Shown here: in pieces, positions 44,641 to 52,097 of the stretch
Layout: every line of letters starts with the position of its first letter
Numbering within the stretch: the stretch's first letter is position 1
Source: an uncultured Nitrososphaeraceae archaeon
GTDB taxonomy: Archaea > Thermoproteota > Nitrososphaeria > Nitrososphaerales > Nitrososphaeraceae
Direction: 5' to 3'
Assembly (NCBI GenBank): GCA_963765895.1
Contig: CAVXZB010000036.1
Location: forward strand, 1-64,000
Length of the DNA stretch: 64,000 nucleotides
Notes under the pieces: generated by a model
Database searches by the model: none
Told to the model about the DNA's origin: nothing
Seen by the model: the letters and a program-made list of their open reading frames with translations, nothing else
Program-made: the position numbers and the translations under genes

Positions 44641-45133
44641 GATATACGAGTAAATAGTGTAAAAGAATCCACTGAATTAGGCCACGAGCTAATAAAGTAG
44701 AGATTCTATGACTACAGATATTTTATTCAAAAATTTAGTCACACCGTGTCTATATAATATTTATCTACAGTGTAGAATCTCTAGATTATATTATAAAGCC
44801 TATCACGGTTGAAATGGTCAGTTTTGTTTGTATGTCTTGCAGATAAGAATCATGTACATCACAAGACCAGCACTCATTAAAATAACAAGTTCATAAATAT
44901 TATTGTTGATGATTCATAAGTGACAGTTTAATCTTGGATTTTAATTATTTTTTGCCGTGGTCAATAACATACTTAATGATAAAAAGTCAATTAATTTGGG
45001 ACAACAATATAAAGGGGAAAATAGAAATCAGTTTATAAGACTGTCTTGTAATTCTGGCCTATGAGCCAATTCTAGGTAAAGAAGGGATTTCAAAGATGTT
45101 ATGTTTGTTTGTTATCTAAACTGAAGTAAGGAA

Positions 45134-48100
45134 TTAACGTTTTCTAGCCTCTATAAATGTAAGGTGTTGTTTTATTTGTGTAGCATTATCATCTATATCA
45201 AAGCCATTTCTTTTATTACATTTCTTAGATCTGATAACCTACCGCCTTGATCTAATTGGTTCGTTGTCTCTGCTATAAACAACCAACCTTTTGATACTAA
45301 ACACCTGTTTGCTTCTGCTAAGTAATCTCTCCAGTTTCTTCCCATGAGCGAGAGTGAAAATACCACTATGTCCAACTCTCCATCTCGTATATGTTTTGAT
45401 AAGTCTTTAATATCGCATGCTATAATCTTATCATTCATAATATTGCTGTGATCAAAACTATACACCTTATTCTCCCGTAATAGATCTGCTAATTCTGCTC
45501 TACCACATCCAAAATCTCCTATTTTTAGTTTCATAACAATATGTTTTGGAATGTTTAGTCCAAAGTTGATCTTATCAGCAATTATATTCACAGGATTAAA
45601 TCCCCAAACTGTCTTTCTTGTATCAAGTTTCGCAAGATAATCTGGTAATACGTTAGGATCTTGCTGTATTCTCTCATGGGTTATCTGTGAATATTCTTCA
45701 TTAATCTGTTTGTTCAGTACTCCTAATTCACTAATCTTTCTTTTTGCATGTTCTAATTCTGATTCTGTCGAAGTTAGTTGCATATTAAGATCCCTTCTTT
45801 TAAAAGTAGAGATCTCATTTCTTTCTAGTCTTTCTAACCACTTTACTAATTCATTATACATCTGTTCTTTACTCTGTAAGAGGCCTATTGGAATTATTCC
45901 GTCTACAGCACAATCCGCTAACATTCGTTTAATTTCAATACCTAGCCATTTTTCTTCGTCATATTCATAGCCAGAATTGATGCTTTTATGACTTGAACTT
46001 TGACAGTATGTTTCTGTCCCATTCTATGTAATCTACCAATTATCTGTCTGAATTGTGTATTCGTCCAAGGTAGTGTATTTATTATAAGGTTACTACATAC
46101 TTCCTGCAATCCGTCAACACCTATAGAAATAGGACGTGAAGCAATTAACACTTGTATATTCTGTTTAGGATCAATGAATTTCTCTAATGTGTCATTAGTA
46201 TCACCTGTGTATTGTATATATGTAAGTCGTACTTTTTTAACAGCATCAACTAAAATTTCATTTACTATTCCTGTGACATATTCTGTATAGATTATTGTCT
46301 TACCTTCTATTCTTTTAATTATTTCTGATATTCTAGCCTCAGTTAGTATTTGTTCCATCAGTAACGGATGTCTCTTAAGATCTTTCGCTTTAATATGAGA
46401 AGGCTTTACTGCTATGACATTTACTTCTCTATATTCTACAGTTGTCTTATATTCTGGCACTTGTCTTATTGATATTAATGATAGTTTTACATGTAATGTC
46501 ATAGCATTAAAAATATTTGGTCTATTTGAAAGATCATCATAGACTTTATGTGTTATGTATGCTAGTAATGACTTACCTTCTTCTAGATCATTTATCGCAG
46601 GAGTTGCAGACATTCCTAATGTTTTAACTCCTTTATTGCGCTCTCTAGCCTCAGTTAATAGATTTCCTAACACTTCACGTCTTTTACTCTCACCACTATC
46701 GTTGCGTTTCTTTATGAAATGTATTTCATCTAGCACAATAAAGTCAATCTTCTGTTTGACTAGCATTGATACTAGATATTTAGAATTGCTCTGACTAAAT
46801 TTATCATAGTTCAATACAAGATACATATTGCACGCTTTTCTGTTCTGCTCCCAGTAAAATGCAGGTTTACCCATTATTACTCTAGAGTTAGGAAATACCT
46901 CTACAATGACATTAGACCATTGCTCAACTACATCATTAGGACAGATTATTAAAGTAACTTTGCTATCTATGACACGACTTGCTAGGATAGCCGATAATGT
47001 TTTGCCTGTACCTGTGTCAGAAAAATTAGCAAAATGCGGTAGCTGATAGACTTTAGAAGCAACATATCGTTGCATGAGATTGGGTTTATATCTGAAAGAA
47101 TAATCCTCTGGTAATCTCGATGTTGTTGCTAACATTGTGTCATATTCTAACAAAAATATATTTCTTACTTCATCATGGAATTTCTTTCCGGTCAACCGTT
47201 CCTGTCTCATTTTTTCAACAGTTTTGATATTTCCATTCTCTTTTTGTGATTGACCATTTACTGAATCAGCAAAAACATTTTTCCCTAGTTTAGTTACTTC
47301 ATTAAATACGAAGAATCGTAATAATTCCTCATCCTCACAAATTGATTCTAAAACTGGATTAGATAACTGCTCAAGTATTTCTTCAACAGACTAAAGGTGT
47401 TCTGATCTTAATGGATCATTATTATCTTCTTTTTCTAATTGATTAACGAGTTGTTCAGTTGTTACTGGTTTTAGTTCGTCGTTAGGAGAAGAAATGTCTG
47501 GAATAGTTTGTTCTTCCCCGGGTTTAGAATCAGAGTTTACAAAGTCCTCCAAAGCCTTTCGTTGTTTCTCGGTCTGAAGTCCCAGCAGGAGATCTTTCAT
47601 AAGTGGTGCGAAGCGATTATGGCCTTGCAAATTCAATATTCCTTTTGCAAGACAGACGTGATATCGTTCACTGTCAGACATCCCATCCAATACTTTGTTT
47701 TCGAGCATATCTCTGACTATTGTCTTAACTTTAGATATTGACATGCTCGTAATAGCATATGCAATAGTACCTGTACCTAACCAATCTCCCCAGTTCTTCC
47801 AATCCTTTTTATATACTTCAGCAGGGTTAGATGGTATGTCTTTTGGCTTCTTTTCAGATTTACAATATTTCCACCATTCACTCTGATTCTTTATTCCTAA
47901 GGAATGTACAAATTTCCTAGCTTGTTCAAATGAGCTGTATTCTCTATTAAATGAGGCTACTACTCCTGTACCTAACCATCTCCCCAGCCTTTCCATCCAT
48001 CTTTTTTATATTCTCTGTCAGGATGAGCTGGAATGTCCTCTGGTTTTTCCTTCCATTTCGCATATTCCTTTTTTGTCTGTAGATTCTGATTTCGGACATA

Positions 48101-48749
48101 CTCTTTGGCCTCAAGAAAAGGTCGCCACATTCTTGTCCGTTGAAAACCTAGGAAATCAAAATAATCGATCCAACCCTTATTTTTGTATACTCGATCTGGA
48201 TCACTTGGTATTCCTATCGGTTTCTCAGATCTCAAATAATTTTTAAACTCTAAAGAGCTTTTCAGACCTTTTGAAAGTACTTTTGATCTTGCTTGTTCAA
48301 ATGGCAGACCAAATTTTTGCCGTAAAATGACCGGCCGTATCACGTCCTTTCTTTTTTTGAGTACCGAGAAAATCAGGCCAATCAATCCAACCTTTGCCCT
48401 TATACTGTAGTTGAGGGTCGCTTGGTATATCAGCTGGTCTATTTCCAGAACTAGCGTATCTCTTATAATCTTCAATATTTTTTAGTCCTAACGAACGTAC
48501 AAACTCTTTTGCTTCTTCAAATGGCCTAAACTTCCTCTTGAAAGTTGCGGTATTTTGAGTACCGAGAAAATCAGGCCAATCAATCCAACCTTTGCCTTTG
48601 TATATTTTATTAGCATTACTTGGTATATCTGATGGTCTCTTTCCAGATTTAGCATACTCATACCATTCTATAGTGCCCTTTAATCCTAATGAACGAACGA
48701 ACTTTCTAGCTTTCTCAAATTTCCTCCAAATTTTATCCTTTGCTTTCAT
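45134..48749 (-). pseudogene. ~1,200-aa fusion: five Trp-rich repeats (integrase-repeat-like) + SF2 helicase + Rrp8-like SAM methyltransferase
   Basis: Track ORFs 48297-48749, 47972-48475, 47391-47996, 45942-47210 and 45193-45924 are joined by frameshifts near 48355, 47978, 45972 and 45210 and an in-frame TAG at 47391-47393; helicase motifs TGTGKT, DEIH, SAT, QIIGRLHRMGQ; MTase motifs DFGCG and VFSLSLMG. Confidence 0.85.
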
Positions 48750-48886
48750 TTTGCCTCACTAGCTACTTTAATATGTGTGTAAACATTTTTCTGACATAGC
48801 GGTAAAGAATATGATAATCCAAGTATTCTAAAATCGTCCTTAGTATAACCAATTTACTAATCTGAAAATAGACAAATATTCATGTT

Positions 48887-49694
48887 CTATTCTCTACCTT
48901 CATTAAACAATACTTTAACTAATCTTAATGCCAATTGTAACTCTTTAATTCTATCTTTGTTTTTCTCTTTGCCTTCTGTTGTGACCATAATCAGGTTCTC
49001 AATAATATTCTTAGTTGGCAGCAGATAAGGAATTGCATCGTGGAGAGAAATACTGTGTGTCACATAAGGATTCTTAGTATCACGATAAATGAAACCGTTA
49101 TTGCAATCTAATATTATTGAACTTTCATCTTTGATTCCCACTTCAAAACTTACATTGTATCTTTGTAACGCCAACTTTGCAAAATCGAATAAAGATTCAT
49201 ATGCTTCTATTAGATCCTGTTTAGTCTTCCCTTTCGGATCATACAATATCGATTTAAGAACTTGCTCTGTTATCTCAGATATATTGATTCCCACTTCCTT
49301 TGCCCTTGTAATAACATCTTTGCTTATTCCGAGAGTAAGTTTTTGTTTTGAATAAGTAGTACCGAGCCAATCTCCCCAGCTTATCCAATTATACTTATAC
49401 CTCATATTTGGATGGACAGGTAAATTATGTGGTTTATTCCCGGATTTACAATATTCTATCCATTCGCTCTGGCTATTTAATCCGAGTTGATGTACAAATT
49501 GCCTAGCTTCCTCAAACTGTAGAAAATGCTCTTTTTTGATCTGTAATCATTCCAATACCGAGCCAATCTCCCCAGTCTTTCCATTCCCACTTATATGCTG
49601 CTGGGGGATTCGAAGGTATATCCGGTGGTTTTTTTCCAGATTTAATATATTGTTGCCAATCATTAGTACCTTTTAATGATTTAGAACCCAACAC
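48887..49694 (-). pseudogene. Trp-rich repeats (1.5-2 units) fused to an RHH/CcdA-like domain and helical tail; frameshift near 49525
   Basis: KPPDIPSNP..YK..WKDWGDWLG; FEEARQFVHQLGLNSQSEW...WISWGDWLG; then KQKLTLGISKDVITRAKEVGINISEITEQVL. Confidence 0.75.
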
Positions 49695-49741
49695 GTATTA
49701 CACACGCGTATAGTTATATATACGTATTATTCATACGTGTT
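49690..49741. promoter_or_regulatory. ACGTAT-type repeat cluster with 9-bp inverted repeat
   Basis: AACACGTAT (49690-49698) and ATACGTGTT (49733-49741); internal CGCGTATA and TACGTATTA. Confidence 0.5.
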
Positions 49742-49902
49742 AAGTATGAAGCGTTGTCTGACCAATGAATATGCCAAGTACTGATCGCATAAACTTTGAG
49801 GATCTGAAAATGCAATCATTTGCAAAACCAAGATTTATAATTCAAAAGATATCGAATGTAAGTCTGTGTCTCTCGATTTGTGGGAGTAATATTCATATTA
49901 AA

Positions 49903-50244
49903 TTATACTATAGTAGGTTCGAAACGATGTGTTATCGAGTATATTAAGTAGTCAATTTTTGGTTCTGTCAACTCTCCGTCGGTTTTCCAGTCTTTTCTAG
50001 ACTGTAAATTTTCGTCGGATCTGAATGACTCTATCTCATCCATTTGTTTATGAATCCGATCAGCCATCTGATATAATGCATCTCGATTTGGTAATGTTAT
50101 ATTATTCTTCTTTGCATATTCTAATATGAAGAATAGAGTTCCGCCGACTTGATCATATAATTCCTGAACTAGTCGTTTCATACGGCGAACTCGTTTCCAT
50201 TCTGTGAGAATCTCTTGCCAAGCGTCAAATTGTTCATTAGGCAT
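49903..50244 (-). CDS. small helical passenger protein reading through the left TIR
   Basis: 113-aa ORF; ...DGELTEP is encoded by the TIR and the stop codon lies in flanking DNA. Confidence 0.65.
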   Translation of the reverse strand: MPNEQFDAWQEILTEWKRVRRMKRLVQELYDQVGGTLFFILEYAKKNNITLPNRDALYQMADRIHKQMDEIESFRSDENLQSRKDWKTDGELTEPKIDYLIYSITHRFEPTIV

Positions 50245-50682
50245 GGACCCTCTTTATCTTTTACCTCATCTTCTCGATATCTTTTCTCCCATCGTATAAA
50301 ATCTGTTATGTCGTCGAGTCCTAACAGTCTCTCTCGTAATGTTTGAACCTCTAATTCAGTGTTCGCTTTAGTACTGGCAATATCCTTTTTCCATTGCTGC
50401 CTTCTGAATATGAAATTCGGTGGGTAAGTTATCAACAAATTTCTCAAATCTTGTCGCTGTAAAAGAATGATCATTTAATACCTGCATGAATACTGTGGAA
50501 TGTTTGAAAAGTAGAGATAGCATAGCCAGTGAATCCCAACTGAGAAACTCCAGAAGAATCCGAGTTTCAGCATCAATATTCCTTGACTCGACCAGTTTAT
50601 TCTTAATATCATTTCGGCTCTTTATTAGATCATTCGAGATTTCTCGATAGTGTGAAACTATCTCGTCATCAAACACAACCAT
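50178..50682 (-). pseudogene. coiled-coil passenger protein, apparently frameshifted near 50385
   Basis: ORFs 50368-50682 and 50178-50474 join at an A-tract (AAMEK/DIAST); start overlaps the stop of the AbrB-like gene. Confidence 0.55.
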
Positions 50683-50918
50683 TAATATTCAGCCCTCTTG
50701 CGTCTTTGTTTCATAGAATACCGAGTTAGTTCTACGGAGCCAGTGTCATCAGATTTCTTTGAGACAATCGTCGTACGTTCGTTACCGGATGTATTCATCT
50801 TCCATTCTAATTCGTCTTTATCAGATAGTTCTAGAAACTCGGCTATGCCTTCTGGTATAGTGGTTTTAAGCGACTTCGTTCCCTTTTTTGCAGAAGCCAC
50901 TCTAGTAATCAATCCCAT
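50682..50918 (-). CDS. AbrB/MazE/SpoVT-type DNA-binding protein
   Basis: MGLITRVASAKKGTKSLKTTIPEGIAEFLELSDKDELEW; start reassigned to Met at 50918. Confidence 0.85.
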   Translation of the reverse strand: MGLITRVASAKKGTKSLKTTIPEGIAEFLELSDKDELEWKMNTSGNERTTIVSKKSDDTGSVELTRYSMKQRRKRAEY

Positions 50919-50932
50919 TATCAGTCGTCTAT

Positions 50933-50988
50933 TATATCGACCGATGGATATATTCTTATCCATCGAAGTATATATCGACCGATGGATA
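50933..50988. promoter_or_regulatory. operator-like repeats in the divergent abrB/transposase promoter
   Basis: 18-bp direct repeat TATATCGACCGATGGATA (50933-50950 and 50971-50988) with an inverted core TATCCATCG (50957-50965) between. Confidence 0.7.
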
Positions 50989-52097
50989 CGACGAATGAGA
51001 GAGAATCACTAGGTCGGATTATCGCTGATAAAGAGAAGGCTGTCAAGAGATACAGCGAATCTCGATATGTAGTTAACTCCCAGTCTGGAAAGGATAAATA
51101 CAAAGTCATTCTAACTAAGATCGGATGGACGTGTTCATGTCCTGACCATAAGTTTCGCGGAGTTAAATGTAAGCACATCTATACTGTCGAAATCTCTTGT
51201 GCTATACGTAGTCAAGTAGAGGTAACTCGAATTGAACCTATCGTTAACGTTCATGAATGCATTTATTGTAAGTCGCTGAACATCGTGAAAGATGGCTTAC
51301 GTCATAACAAAGCCAGCGATATTCAGAAGTTCAACTGCAAGTCATGTAGTAGATATTTCACTATTAACATAGGCTTTGAGAAGATGAAACATAATCCTCA
51401 AGGGATAGCTACGGCAATGCAGTTGTATTTCGCCGGCGAATCCCTACGTAATACCTCCCACTCATTGAAACTAATTGGAATGGATGTAACGCATCAGACA
51501 GTGTTCAATTGGATCAAGAAATACACAACGCTCATGCAGACATATCTTAATCGAATAACATCCAACGTTGGTAACGCTTGGAGAACAGACGAATTGTATG
51601 TGAAGTTCAAGGGTAATATGAAATACATGTATGCATTGATGGATGATGAAACGCGTTTCTGGATAGCGCAACAAGTTGCAGACACAAAGTTTACCGCTGA
51701 CGTAAGACTGCTATTTAGAAAGGCAAAGGAGATTGCCGGCAAAAGGCCGACAGTATTGATAAGCGATGGCGCAAGGAACTACGACGATACATATAGACAC
51801 GAATTCGCTACCATTAGAAGCCCGCGGACTAGACATATTCGCCATATTCGATTACAAGGCGATCATAATAATAACAAGATGAAAAGGCTGAACGGAGAGG
51901 TTAGAGACAGAGAGAAAGTTATGAGAGGTCTGAAGAAGATGGATACTCCAATTCTTACTGGGTATCAGTTATTTCATAATTATATCAGACCTCATATGGC
52001 ATTGGAAGGAAAGACTCCGGCTGAAGTTAGTGGAATTGAGATTGGAGGTGAGAATAAACGGAAGACGATTATAGAGAATGCATCTAAAGATCTCTAA
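50982..52097 (+). CDS. IS6-family DDE transposase with N-terminal SWIM finger and Zn ribbon
   Basis: CSCPDH...CKH (SWIM), CIYC...CKSC, HTH, WRTDELYV, ISDGA; NNKMKRLN has Lys where the catalytic Glu is expected. Confidence 0.92.
   Translation: MDTTNERESLGRIIADKEKAVKRYSESRYVVNSQSGKDKYKVILTKIGWTCSCPDHKFRGVKCKHIYTVEISCAIRSQVEVTRIEPIVNVHECIYCKSLNIVKDGLRHNKASDIQKFNCKSCSRYFTINIGFEKMKHNPQGIATAMQLYFAGESLRNTSHSLKLIGMDVTHQTVFNWIKKYTTLMQTYLNRITSNVGNAWRTDELYVKFKGNMKYMYALMDDETRFWIAQQVADTKFTADVRLLFRKAKEIAGKRPTVLISDGARNYDDTYRHEFATIRSPRTRHIRHIRLQGDHNNNKMKRLNGEVRDREKVMRGLKKMDTPILTGYQLFHNYIRPHMALEGKTPAEVSGIEIGGENKRKTIIENASKDL

Follow-up and report, generated by a model that had tools for sequence, protein, structure and literature searches.

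A probable self-repressing ribbon-helix-helix regulator gene, decayed beside a broken INT_rpt-helicase-methyltransferase gene in a Nitrososphaeraceae archaeon

What kind of gene occupies positions 48,887 to 49,741 of a 64,000-nucleotide stretch of DNA (hereafter the window) from an uncultured Nitrososphaeraceae archaeon (assembly GCA_963765895.1, contig CAVXZB010000036.1, positions 1 to 64,000 of the forward strand), and what could it do for the helicase-methyltransferase gene beside it? A preliminary description, made from the letters alone, had proposed a regulator or antitoxin that shares a Trp-rich repeat with this neighbour, carries a ribbon-helix-helix (RHH) or CcdA-like segment, and represses itself through a box array at its 5′ end, the two genes forming one system. 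The analysis reported here leads us to consider it probable that the locus is a decayed copy of the gene for a self-repressing transcription factor, and, by comparison with intact relatives, the window holds the relic of a lineage-specific pair of which both genes are broken.

The minus strand from 49694 to 48887 encodes one and a half INT_rpt (Trp-rich) repeats, a CcdA-like RHH segment and a C-terminal domain of about 113–115 residues, distributed over two reading frames as follows:

49512..49694, minus strand: first frame, 60 codons, with a GTG start at 49694 inside box 4 of the array described below and a TGA stop at 49514-49512
49694-49554, minus strand: partial INT_rpt repeat 1, without its first helix, inside the first frame
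49532..49537, minus strand: A6 run, the site of frame loss relative to the intact orthologues P0002-P0005 and P0008
49546 to the stop at 48887-48889, minus strand: second frame, open over 219 codons
49358..49534, minus strand: INT_rpt repeat 2, complete, 59 amino acids (aa), in the second frame
48887..49405, minus strand: longest ATG-started open reading frame (ORF) of the second frame, 172 aa, starting within repeat 2 and holding the RHH segment and C-terminal domain
49241..49348, minus strand: RHH segment KQKLTLGISKDVITRAKEVGINISEITEQVLKSIL, with the Pfam CcdA match and the helices of the AlphaFold2 (AF2) model
48890..49228, minus strand: conserved C-terminal domain, about 113 aa, with a helix, four strands and two helices

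The protein of the first frame opens MLGSKSLKGTNDWQQYIKSGKKPPDIPSNPPAAYKWEWKDWGDWLG, and its repeat 1 lacks the first helix because a stop codon stands two codons 5′ of the GTG at 49694 on the same strand; the orthologue P0005 has the same kind of start, and its repeat 1 is likewise without that helix. The protein of the second frame contains KEHFLQFEEARQFVHQLGLNSQSEWIEYCKSGNKPHNLPVHPNMRYKYNWISWGDWLGTTYSKQKLTLGISKDVITRAKEVGINISEITEQVLK and, after it, about 115 more residues; it includes the peptide KQKLTLGISKDVITRAKEVGINISEITEQVL that had been called RHH-like from the letters and that does match Pfam CcdA. The five intact orthologues, all metagenomic, are uninterrupted proteins of 268-284 aa with 69-85% identity, which read ADQNKHFLQFEEAR across the break point, and either A5 or A8 in place of A6 would restore the orthologous reading TDQK(K)EHFLQFEEAR. 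What had been described as a single gene over 48887-49741 thus keeps its repeats and its RHH peptide but is split into two frames at the A6 run, and, judged against these orthologues, the full-length protein cannot be made in this genome owing to this frameshift.

The neighbour, which lies 137 nt downstream in the same orientation, had been taken for an intact gene; it is instead a pseudogene in at least five pieces, so that the orientation and order of the two genes were correctly described while the broken state of both was missed. Its features are as follows, the lesions being placed by comparison with P0144:

45137..48749, minus strand: INT_rpt (five repeats)-SNF2/ResIII helicase-Methyltransf_8 pseudogene, compared with the intact 1203-aa P0144
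about 48308, minus strand: frameshift 1
about 47977, minus strand: frameshift 2, inside WGD/WLG
47391-47393, minus strand: in-frame stop, Gln to stop
about 45980, minus strand: frameshift 3, at KASI/SGYEY
about 45208, minus strand: frameshift 4

The pseudogene is collinear with P0144, its closest intact form, and these four frameshifts and one stop are its five lesions. Both genes were checked against independent contigs, built from four soil runs of a single study and aligned to 45100-49900 at a depth of about 3-5x, a check that rests on contigs and not on reads, so that rare variants would escape it. Every lesion of the pseudogene except that at 48308 is present in the independent contigs, the four being confirmed by contigs of 2-4 runs. 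At 48308 the window has one base more than the contigs X2 and X3, and minus that base the first two pieces join in frame (FTAKIW-LPFEQAR); the extra base is either a strain polymorphism or an assembly slip. In the regulator gene, the contig X1 (record 8, 48636-49739) has two single-nucleotide polymorphisms (SNPs) and no gap and keeps the A6 run, which means that a slightly different strain shares the frame break, and X2 also covers the bin of the A6 run, with no indel reported there. The lesion densities of the two genes are similar, about 1 per 268 codons in the RHH gene and 5 per about 1200 codons in the helicase-methyltransferase gene, which fits joint neutral decay of both.

Intact relatives of the pseudogene are single proteins of about 1100-1350 aa with INT_rpt repeats, the SNF2/ResIII helicase and Methyltransf_8, annotated as 'integrase repeat-containing protein', and 705 long homologues were found at E<=1e-10 among 7,999 candidates scored. 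The Methyltransf_8 match at window positions 45193-45924 has E=1.4e-25, and the same domain lies at the C-terminus of P0144; we take Methyltransf_8 to be the Rrp8-type rRNA methyltransferase family and not a typical DNA methylase. One other genome (G342) holds five helicase-methyltransferase matches (contigs C625, C613, C122 and C181; L235-L243), namely one intact frame of 1247 aa, one with 1 internal stop, one with 5, and two shorter partials. To judge from such copies, the helicase-methyltransferase family looks multi-copy and decay-prone.

The regulator itself belongs to a family that is mostly archaeal and previously uncharacterised, with an RHH segment followed by a conserved C-terminal domain. 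The window protein passes the Pfam CcdA (PF07362) cut-off of 22.4 bits with a match of 26.2 bits (E=1e-5), which extends over profile positions 1-36 of 71 only, and the 172-aa part also matches DUF6364 weakly; among the 46 aligned family members, all match CcdA (E<=0.001) and 39 match DUF6364. A word search returned 23 homologues, including P0002, which is 85% identical to the 172-aa frame, and a profile search of 1.84 billion representatives returned 417 clusters at E<=1e-3, of which 257 pass <=1e-10 and 113 pass <=1e-30; most are 160-225 aa long, with the match beginning near residue 1. At 37 distant loci, two of which are cut by contig ends, 35 ORFs were recovered, and all are standalone proteins of 161-214 aa with 5-25 residues ahead of KQKLTL. 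The RHH strand K20 Q21 K22 L23 T24 L25 is invariant, as are N, S, T, E and L residues in the helices. The AF2 model of the 219-aa frame (predicted local distance difference test, pLDDT, 85) has a compact INT_rpt unit of four helices, followed at 66-72, the place expected for the ribbon, by an extended stretch of low confidence, then by helices at 76-84 and 89-100, and finally by the C-terminal helix/four-strand/two-helix domain at a pLDDT of about 90. In this domain no Pfam match was found and no metal-binding motif was identified; the RHH gene was unmatched in NCBIfam and PADLOC, the protein Atlas search gave no usable match, and the search of viral contigs gave just one weak partial match. 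A CopG/RHH arCOG is among the common genes of thaumarchaeal integrated elements, and the family studied here is not described in the accessible part of that account (PMC6563490).

The evidence for self-repression in this family lies upstream, where the window holds the following array:

49690..49741, minus strand: putative operator/promoter of 52 bp with four ATACGTAT-type boxes, overlapping the GTG start
49740-49733, minus strand: box 1, ACACGTAT
49727-49720, minus strand: box 2, ATACGTAT, an 8-bp palindrome
about 49723-49714, minus strand: TATA-like element TATATATAA, between boxes 2 and 3
49711-49704, minus strand: box 3, ATACGCGT, degenerate, with 2 mismatches to ATACGTAT
49698-49691, minus strand: box 4, ATACGTGT, with the GTG start inside

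The start-to-start spacing of the boxes is 13/16/13 nt, and both box pairs share a dyad axis at 49715.5; the GTG start lies about 25 nt from the centre of the TATA-like element, a distance that suggests a leaderless transcript. All four boxes of the preliminary description are present, box 3 in degenerate form, and the 9-bp inverted repeat said to bound them is perfect: AACACGTAT stands at 49741-49733 and 49690-49698 and nowhere else in the window. In the 4.9-Mb genome this 9-mer has 17 copies against 61 expected from base composition, the two copies here are the sole pair within 80 bp, and no second ACGT-core cluster of this kind occurs in the genome. A scan of genome contigs for the two outer repeat arms separated by 25-45 nt gave more than 119 matches, all of them bacterial among the matches listed, and was taken as chance; a literature search for ATACGTAT gave nothing relevant among the matches listed; and before the helicase gene the search for an operator-like site gave one 2-mismatch match (48771-48779), within chance expectation.

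The central new finding is the comparison across the family. Within the 160 nt upstream of the RHH motif, 30 unique and unrelated loci hold 94 matches to ATACGTAT with at most 1 mismatch, a density of 1.96 per 100 nt, whereas the other 180,251 nt of these loci hold 61 (0.034 per 100 nt); the enrichment is 58-fold. At least one box is present at 30/30 loci, at least two at 29/30, at least three at 23/30 and at least four at 11/30. The position matrix of the 93 sites with full flanks reads A(89%) T/C A(99%) C(100%) G(98%) T(100%) A/G T, the spacing within pairs is 12-14 nt, the two pairs are separated by an element of the TTTAAATA or TTATATA type, and the start codon comes about 0-10 nt after box 4. 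The window array has this layout too. The box-bearing loci span Nitrososphaerota and varied metagenomes and differ in genomic context. Autoregulation through the box array, as first supposed from the window alone, is therefore strongly supported by comparison, in the manner of phylogenetic footprinting, and the same holds, as far as conserved sites can speak for function, for autorepression across the whole family.

The repeat at the N-terminus of the regulator is likewise more than a local accident. The window repeats score 21.4-21.7 bits against Pfam INT_rpt (PF14882), under its cut-off of 26.5, and are 26-54% identical to repeats of proteins that pass it, such as L096 at 83 bits; the INT_rpt domain is precomputed in P0002, P0004 and P0005, and P0228 matches it at 39 bits. 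Against the repeats of the neighbouring pseudogene, 21-25 of 45-48 and 23-31 of 58-59 aligned residues are identical (40-53%), which bears out the earlier statement that 1.5-2 copies of one module, in fact one partial and one full copy, are common to regulator and effector. Isolated repeat 2 is modelled by AF2 at a pLDDT of 93.8; Foldseek gave no match to it, VIA-align a best Z of 2.8, and the PDB sequence search with the repeat profile nothing significant. The fusion to the RHH segment is not unique to this genome but recurs with 1-3 repeats in P0003, P0228 (three repeats, 366 aa), P0162/P0009, P0184, P0208, P0178 and P0202, while the same N-terminal slot is filled by a MarR/TrmB-type winged helix-turn-helix (wHTH) domain in P0010, P0252 and P0232. 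Because the slot is common to both, we propose that INT_rpt is probably an extra nucleic-acid-binding module. A maximum-likelihood tree built from 69 core sequences, with none dropped, places the 13 INT_rpt rows in three to four groups within a single poorly resolved clade; the tree needs four fusion changes, of which well-supported branches force at least 2, so that the fusion was gained or lost more than once. In the literature on PF14882, INT_rpt or 'integrase repeat', the accessible text yielded nothing beyond a table row in PMC8078820.

Is the regulator, then, the regular companion of the helicase-methyltransferase? The comparison indicates that the pairing is a trait of one sub-lineage. 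At L229, a locus from another genus of the same family, a 366-aa gene with three INT_rpt repeats and the RHH segment is followed after 128 nt, in the same orientation, by a gene with 48% identity to residues 207-453 of P0144, and the contig ends soon after. Just upstream of this fusion, L229:3187-3282 encodes a truncated fourth INT_rpt unit ending in a stop, which hints that repeats are gained and lost at the 5′ end. For the orthologue P0004 and for P0144 the longest contig has the same length, 62,833 bp, and for P0005 and P0024 it is in both cases 32,133 bp, which suggests the same contig for each pair of proteins, not necessarily adjoining genes; these closest relatives were not found in the metagenome and genome scans. 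Elsewhere the two families part company: no CcdA-like gene is near the helicase-methyltransferase at 6/6 other loci read, no RHH gene is on four further helicase contigs of the L229 genome (G342), and no helicase or Methyltransf_8 protein is among the 98 neighbour proteins of the standalone family members at 35 loci. An RHH-family match occurs in 1/300 other genomes of the order and in 6/237 genomes of the family, and the helicase-methyltransferase in 8/300 genomes of the order (one of them the unpublished G260), none of the eight being among the genomes that match the RHH query. The two-gene system proposed earlier thus stands for one sub-lineage, with the window, L229 and two presumed cases among the closest relatives; at the other loci read the two genes occur apart.

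Based on these findings, we propose that the intact protein would act as a repressor of its own gene. First, the invariant K-Q-K-L-T-L strand of RHH dimers would enter the major groove at the 8-bp palindrome; a palindrome of eight bases is what a dimeric RHH protein would be expected to read, and the constancy of the site agrees with that of the strand. Second, the boxes flank the TATA-like element in twos, and box 4 overlaps the start of what is probably a leaderless transcript; the bound protein would therefore block TBP, TFB or RNA polymerase, and its own gene would be repressed. Third, the C-terminal domain may give dimer-dimer cooperativity or sense a signal, and in the INT_rpt sub-lineage the regulator may control or assist the adjoining helicase-methyltransferase gene. 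DNA binding, repression and the roles of the C-terminal domain and INT_rpt are what we infer here from conserved sites and domain arrangement.

Several observations weigh against the view that the locus is a decayed self-repressing regulator gene of this kind. On the protein side, the ribbon strand is unformed in the monomer AF2 model, with residues 68-70 at a pLDDT <50; the 219-aa model gave no Foldseek match against the PDB at E<=0.001 and a best VIA-align Z of 4.6, with no fold assigned; and in the PDB neither the family profile nor the RHH segment had a significant sequence match to a solved RHH structure. On the DNA side, box 3 of the window is degenerate, L229, the sole other INT_rpt-fused gene with its DNA read, is without an upstream box cluster, although its 5′ end has a broken extra repeat, and another factor might in principle bind the boxes. 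The A6 run is supported by one low-depth contig (about 4x) of one study plus cover in a second run, and adjacency in the two closest relatives is deduced only from equal longest-contig sizes. Finally, the 172-aa ORF resembles the standalone members of the family, and the locus may accordingly not be fully dead.

This last point opens an alternative that we regard as unlikely, namely that the locus continues to work, the 172-aa ORF (ATG at 49405, with a 19-aa lead) being translated from the operator-controlled transcript and only the INT_rpt part being lost. The standalone members, at 161-214 aa and with only 5-25 residues before KQKLTL, would be just such proteins, the 172-aa frame has no further lesion and keeps its 85% identity to P0002, and the operator is largely intact; however, the ATG lies 107 nt past the stop of the first frame with no evident ribosome-binding signal in the sequence, box 3 is degenerate, and the lesion density is about that of the clearly dead neighbour.

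A bolder reading extends the self-repressing regulator to a general role. Nuclease, restriction-modification or defence families (GmrSD_N/DUF5343, Mrr_cat, HNH, ABC-3C MC3/DUF3732, Cas1, MvaI/BcnI, Eco57I/N6_Mtase and N6_N4_Mtase) lie within two genes of the family member in 8/30 unique loci, three more loci have an integrase or an insertion sequence (IS), and the remaining loci have housekeeping or unknown genes; the enrichment of defence genes is an impression from counts without a matched control. No partner recurs across divergent loci beyond close relatives, with two exceptions. One is an ORF of 67-68 aa that overlaps the 3′ end of the RHH gene (L002:1841-2044, L016:2109-2315 and L017:1132-1338; 33% identity between L002 and L016) and is a possible small partner gene, and the other is a protein of about 600-700 aa that recurs in L022, L033 and L034. 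The family might be a widespread archaeal 'island regulator', in which four ATACGTAT boxes around a TATA element silence variable cargo until a signal reaches the C-terminal domain, while the INT_rpt branch aims regulator and effector at the same target; we offer this as speculation, with the odds clearly against it.

Whether the boxes belong to the protein at all can also be asked. That they serve a different host factor or a general promoter element, the RHH protein acting elsewhere, is in our judgement improbable: the link between protein and box does rest on comparison, and L229 is without boxes, but the boxes travel with the gene across contexts and taxa, their density in the flanking 180 kb, where many other promoters lie, is 58-fold lower, and a palindrome is the kind of site expected for a dimeric RHH protein whose reading strand is invariant.

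Slightly less probable still is that the frame break is bypassed, by a programmed +1 shift or by slippage on A6, or that it is an assembly or sequencing error. The break does sit in a homopolymer, where a Lys-tRNA paired with AAA could shift to the +1 frame without loss of pairing, and the window differs by one base from other contigs elsewhere, at 48308. Yet the next codon, AGA, is the commonest Arg codon (45%), so that there is no 'hungry codon' for a programmed shift, and this together with the five intact orthologues, which run straight through, argues against such a shift as far as codon usage and alignment can tell. A6 is also short for slippage, the X1 contig, whose 2 SNPs mark it as a separate assembly, has the same run, and the neighbour has four further contig-confirmed lesions (2-4 runs).

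The least probable reading, a type II CcdA-like antitoxin that neutralises the helicase-methyltransferase as its toxin, draws on the Pfam CcdA name and match, on the upstream, co-oriented and autoregulated position familiar from toxin-antitoxin operons, and on the frequent nuclease or restriction-modification neighbours of the family, but it is weak because the C-terminal part is a folded 115-aa domain and not a toxin-binding tail and no CcdB-like gene was found (neither a CcdB/MazF-like toxin nor a partner recurrent across divergent loci among the 98 neighbour proteins, and no CcdB match among the scanned neighbours in the window), while the CcdA match is confined to the DNA-binding half of the profile and the helicase-methyltransferase family does without an RHH gene in 6/6 loci read. 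The antitoxin role of the preliminary description is thus unsupported, and a self-repressing regulator of variable cargo fits better.

Other features of the window and its genome may be recorded here. An IS transposase with a SWIM zinc finger and DDE_Tnp_IS240 lies at 50982-52097 (plus strand), and one of the same type lies two genes from a family member in L024. At 49903-50963 (minus strand), a small ORF with a weak AbrB/MazE/PrlF-like match (50682-50963; E=1e-3) precedes three ORFs without a Pfam match that overlap in different frames (50368-50682, 50178-50474 and 49903-50244), and this set may be another frameshifted gene. The host genome (4.9 Mb) is covered to only about 60% by stop-free frames of at least 100 aa and has only 629 ORFs of at least 300 aa, a low cover for an archaeon that suggests widespread gene decay or low coding density.

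To our knowledge, few archaeal repressor-operator pairs have been defined, and hardly any in the ammonia-oxidising Nitrososphaerota. The combination of an invariant strand with a near-invariant palindrome, set out in a fixed arrangement of four sites among hundreds of relatives, therefore offers a directly testable and possibly portable repressor-operator pair, and a likely role for a family that automatic annotation labels 'CcdA antitoxin'. The sharing of one slot with winged-helix DNA-binding domains is a first functional hint for INT_rpt, and if the island-regulator reading were true, regulator and effector would form a dedicated pair of a new kind, joined by a common repeat. In this genome both genes are relics, and the lasting value of the locus would lie in the family-wide relationship of repressor and operator.

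Among known systems, CcdA (PF07362), the antitoxin of the F-plasmid ccd system, resembles the regulator in its N-terminal RHH segment, its place upstream of a larger gene and its autoregulatory logic; here, however, the profile is matched by half, no CcdB partner accompanies the gene, the place of the toxin-binding tail is taken by a folded 115-aa domain, the host is an archaeon, and INT_rpt or a wHTH domain is added at the N-terminus. MetJ, Arc, CopG and omega are dimeric RHH repressors that bind short palindromic or repeated boxes in arrays, cooperatively and with promoter occlusion, and the sites of MetJ are tandem AGACGTCT boxes of 8 bp, read by a K-x-T strand; box and strand resemble ATACGTAT and the K-L-T of the present family. 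Unlike these repressors, the family has its own C-terminal domain and no match to a solved RHH protein, and its boxes form two pairs, with a spacing of 12-14 nt, that flank an archaeal TATA element. NikR-type regulators likewise have an RHH followed by a larger C-terminal domain that possibly couples dimers or binds a ligand, but the domain here is unmatched to solved structures (best Z 4.6) and has no identified metal-binding motif. A functional analogy leads to the C proteins of restriction-modification systems and to the BrxR/CapW regulators, which are also small autoregulated DNA-binding genes beside varied defence genes, although the protein here is of the RHH and not the HTH or WYL type and its link to defence comes from neighbourhood alone. 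Closest in place is the 'integrase repeat-containing protein' of Nitrososphaerota, which shares INT_rpt with the regulator and adjoins the RHH gene both here and in L229, but which forms a separate and much larger family that usually occurs without it.

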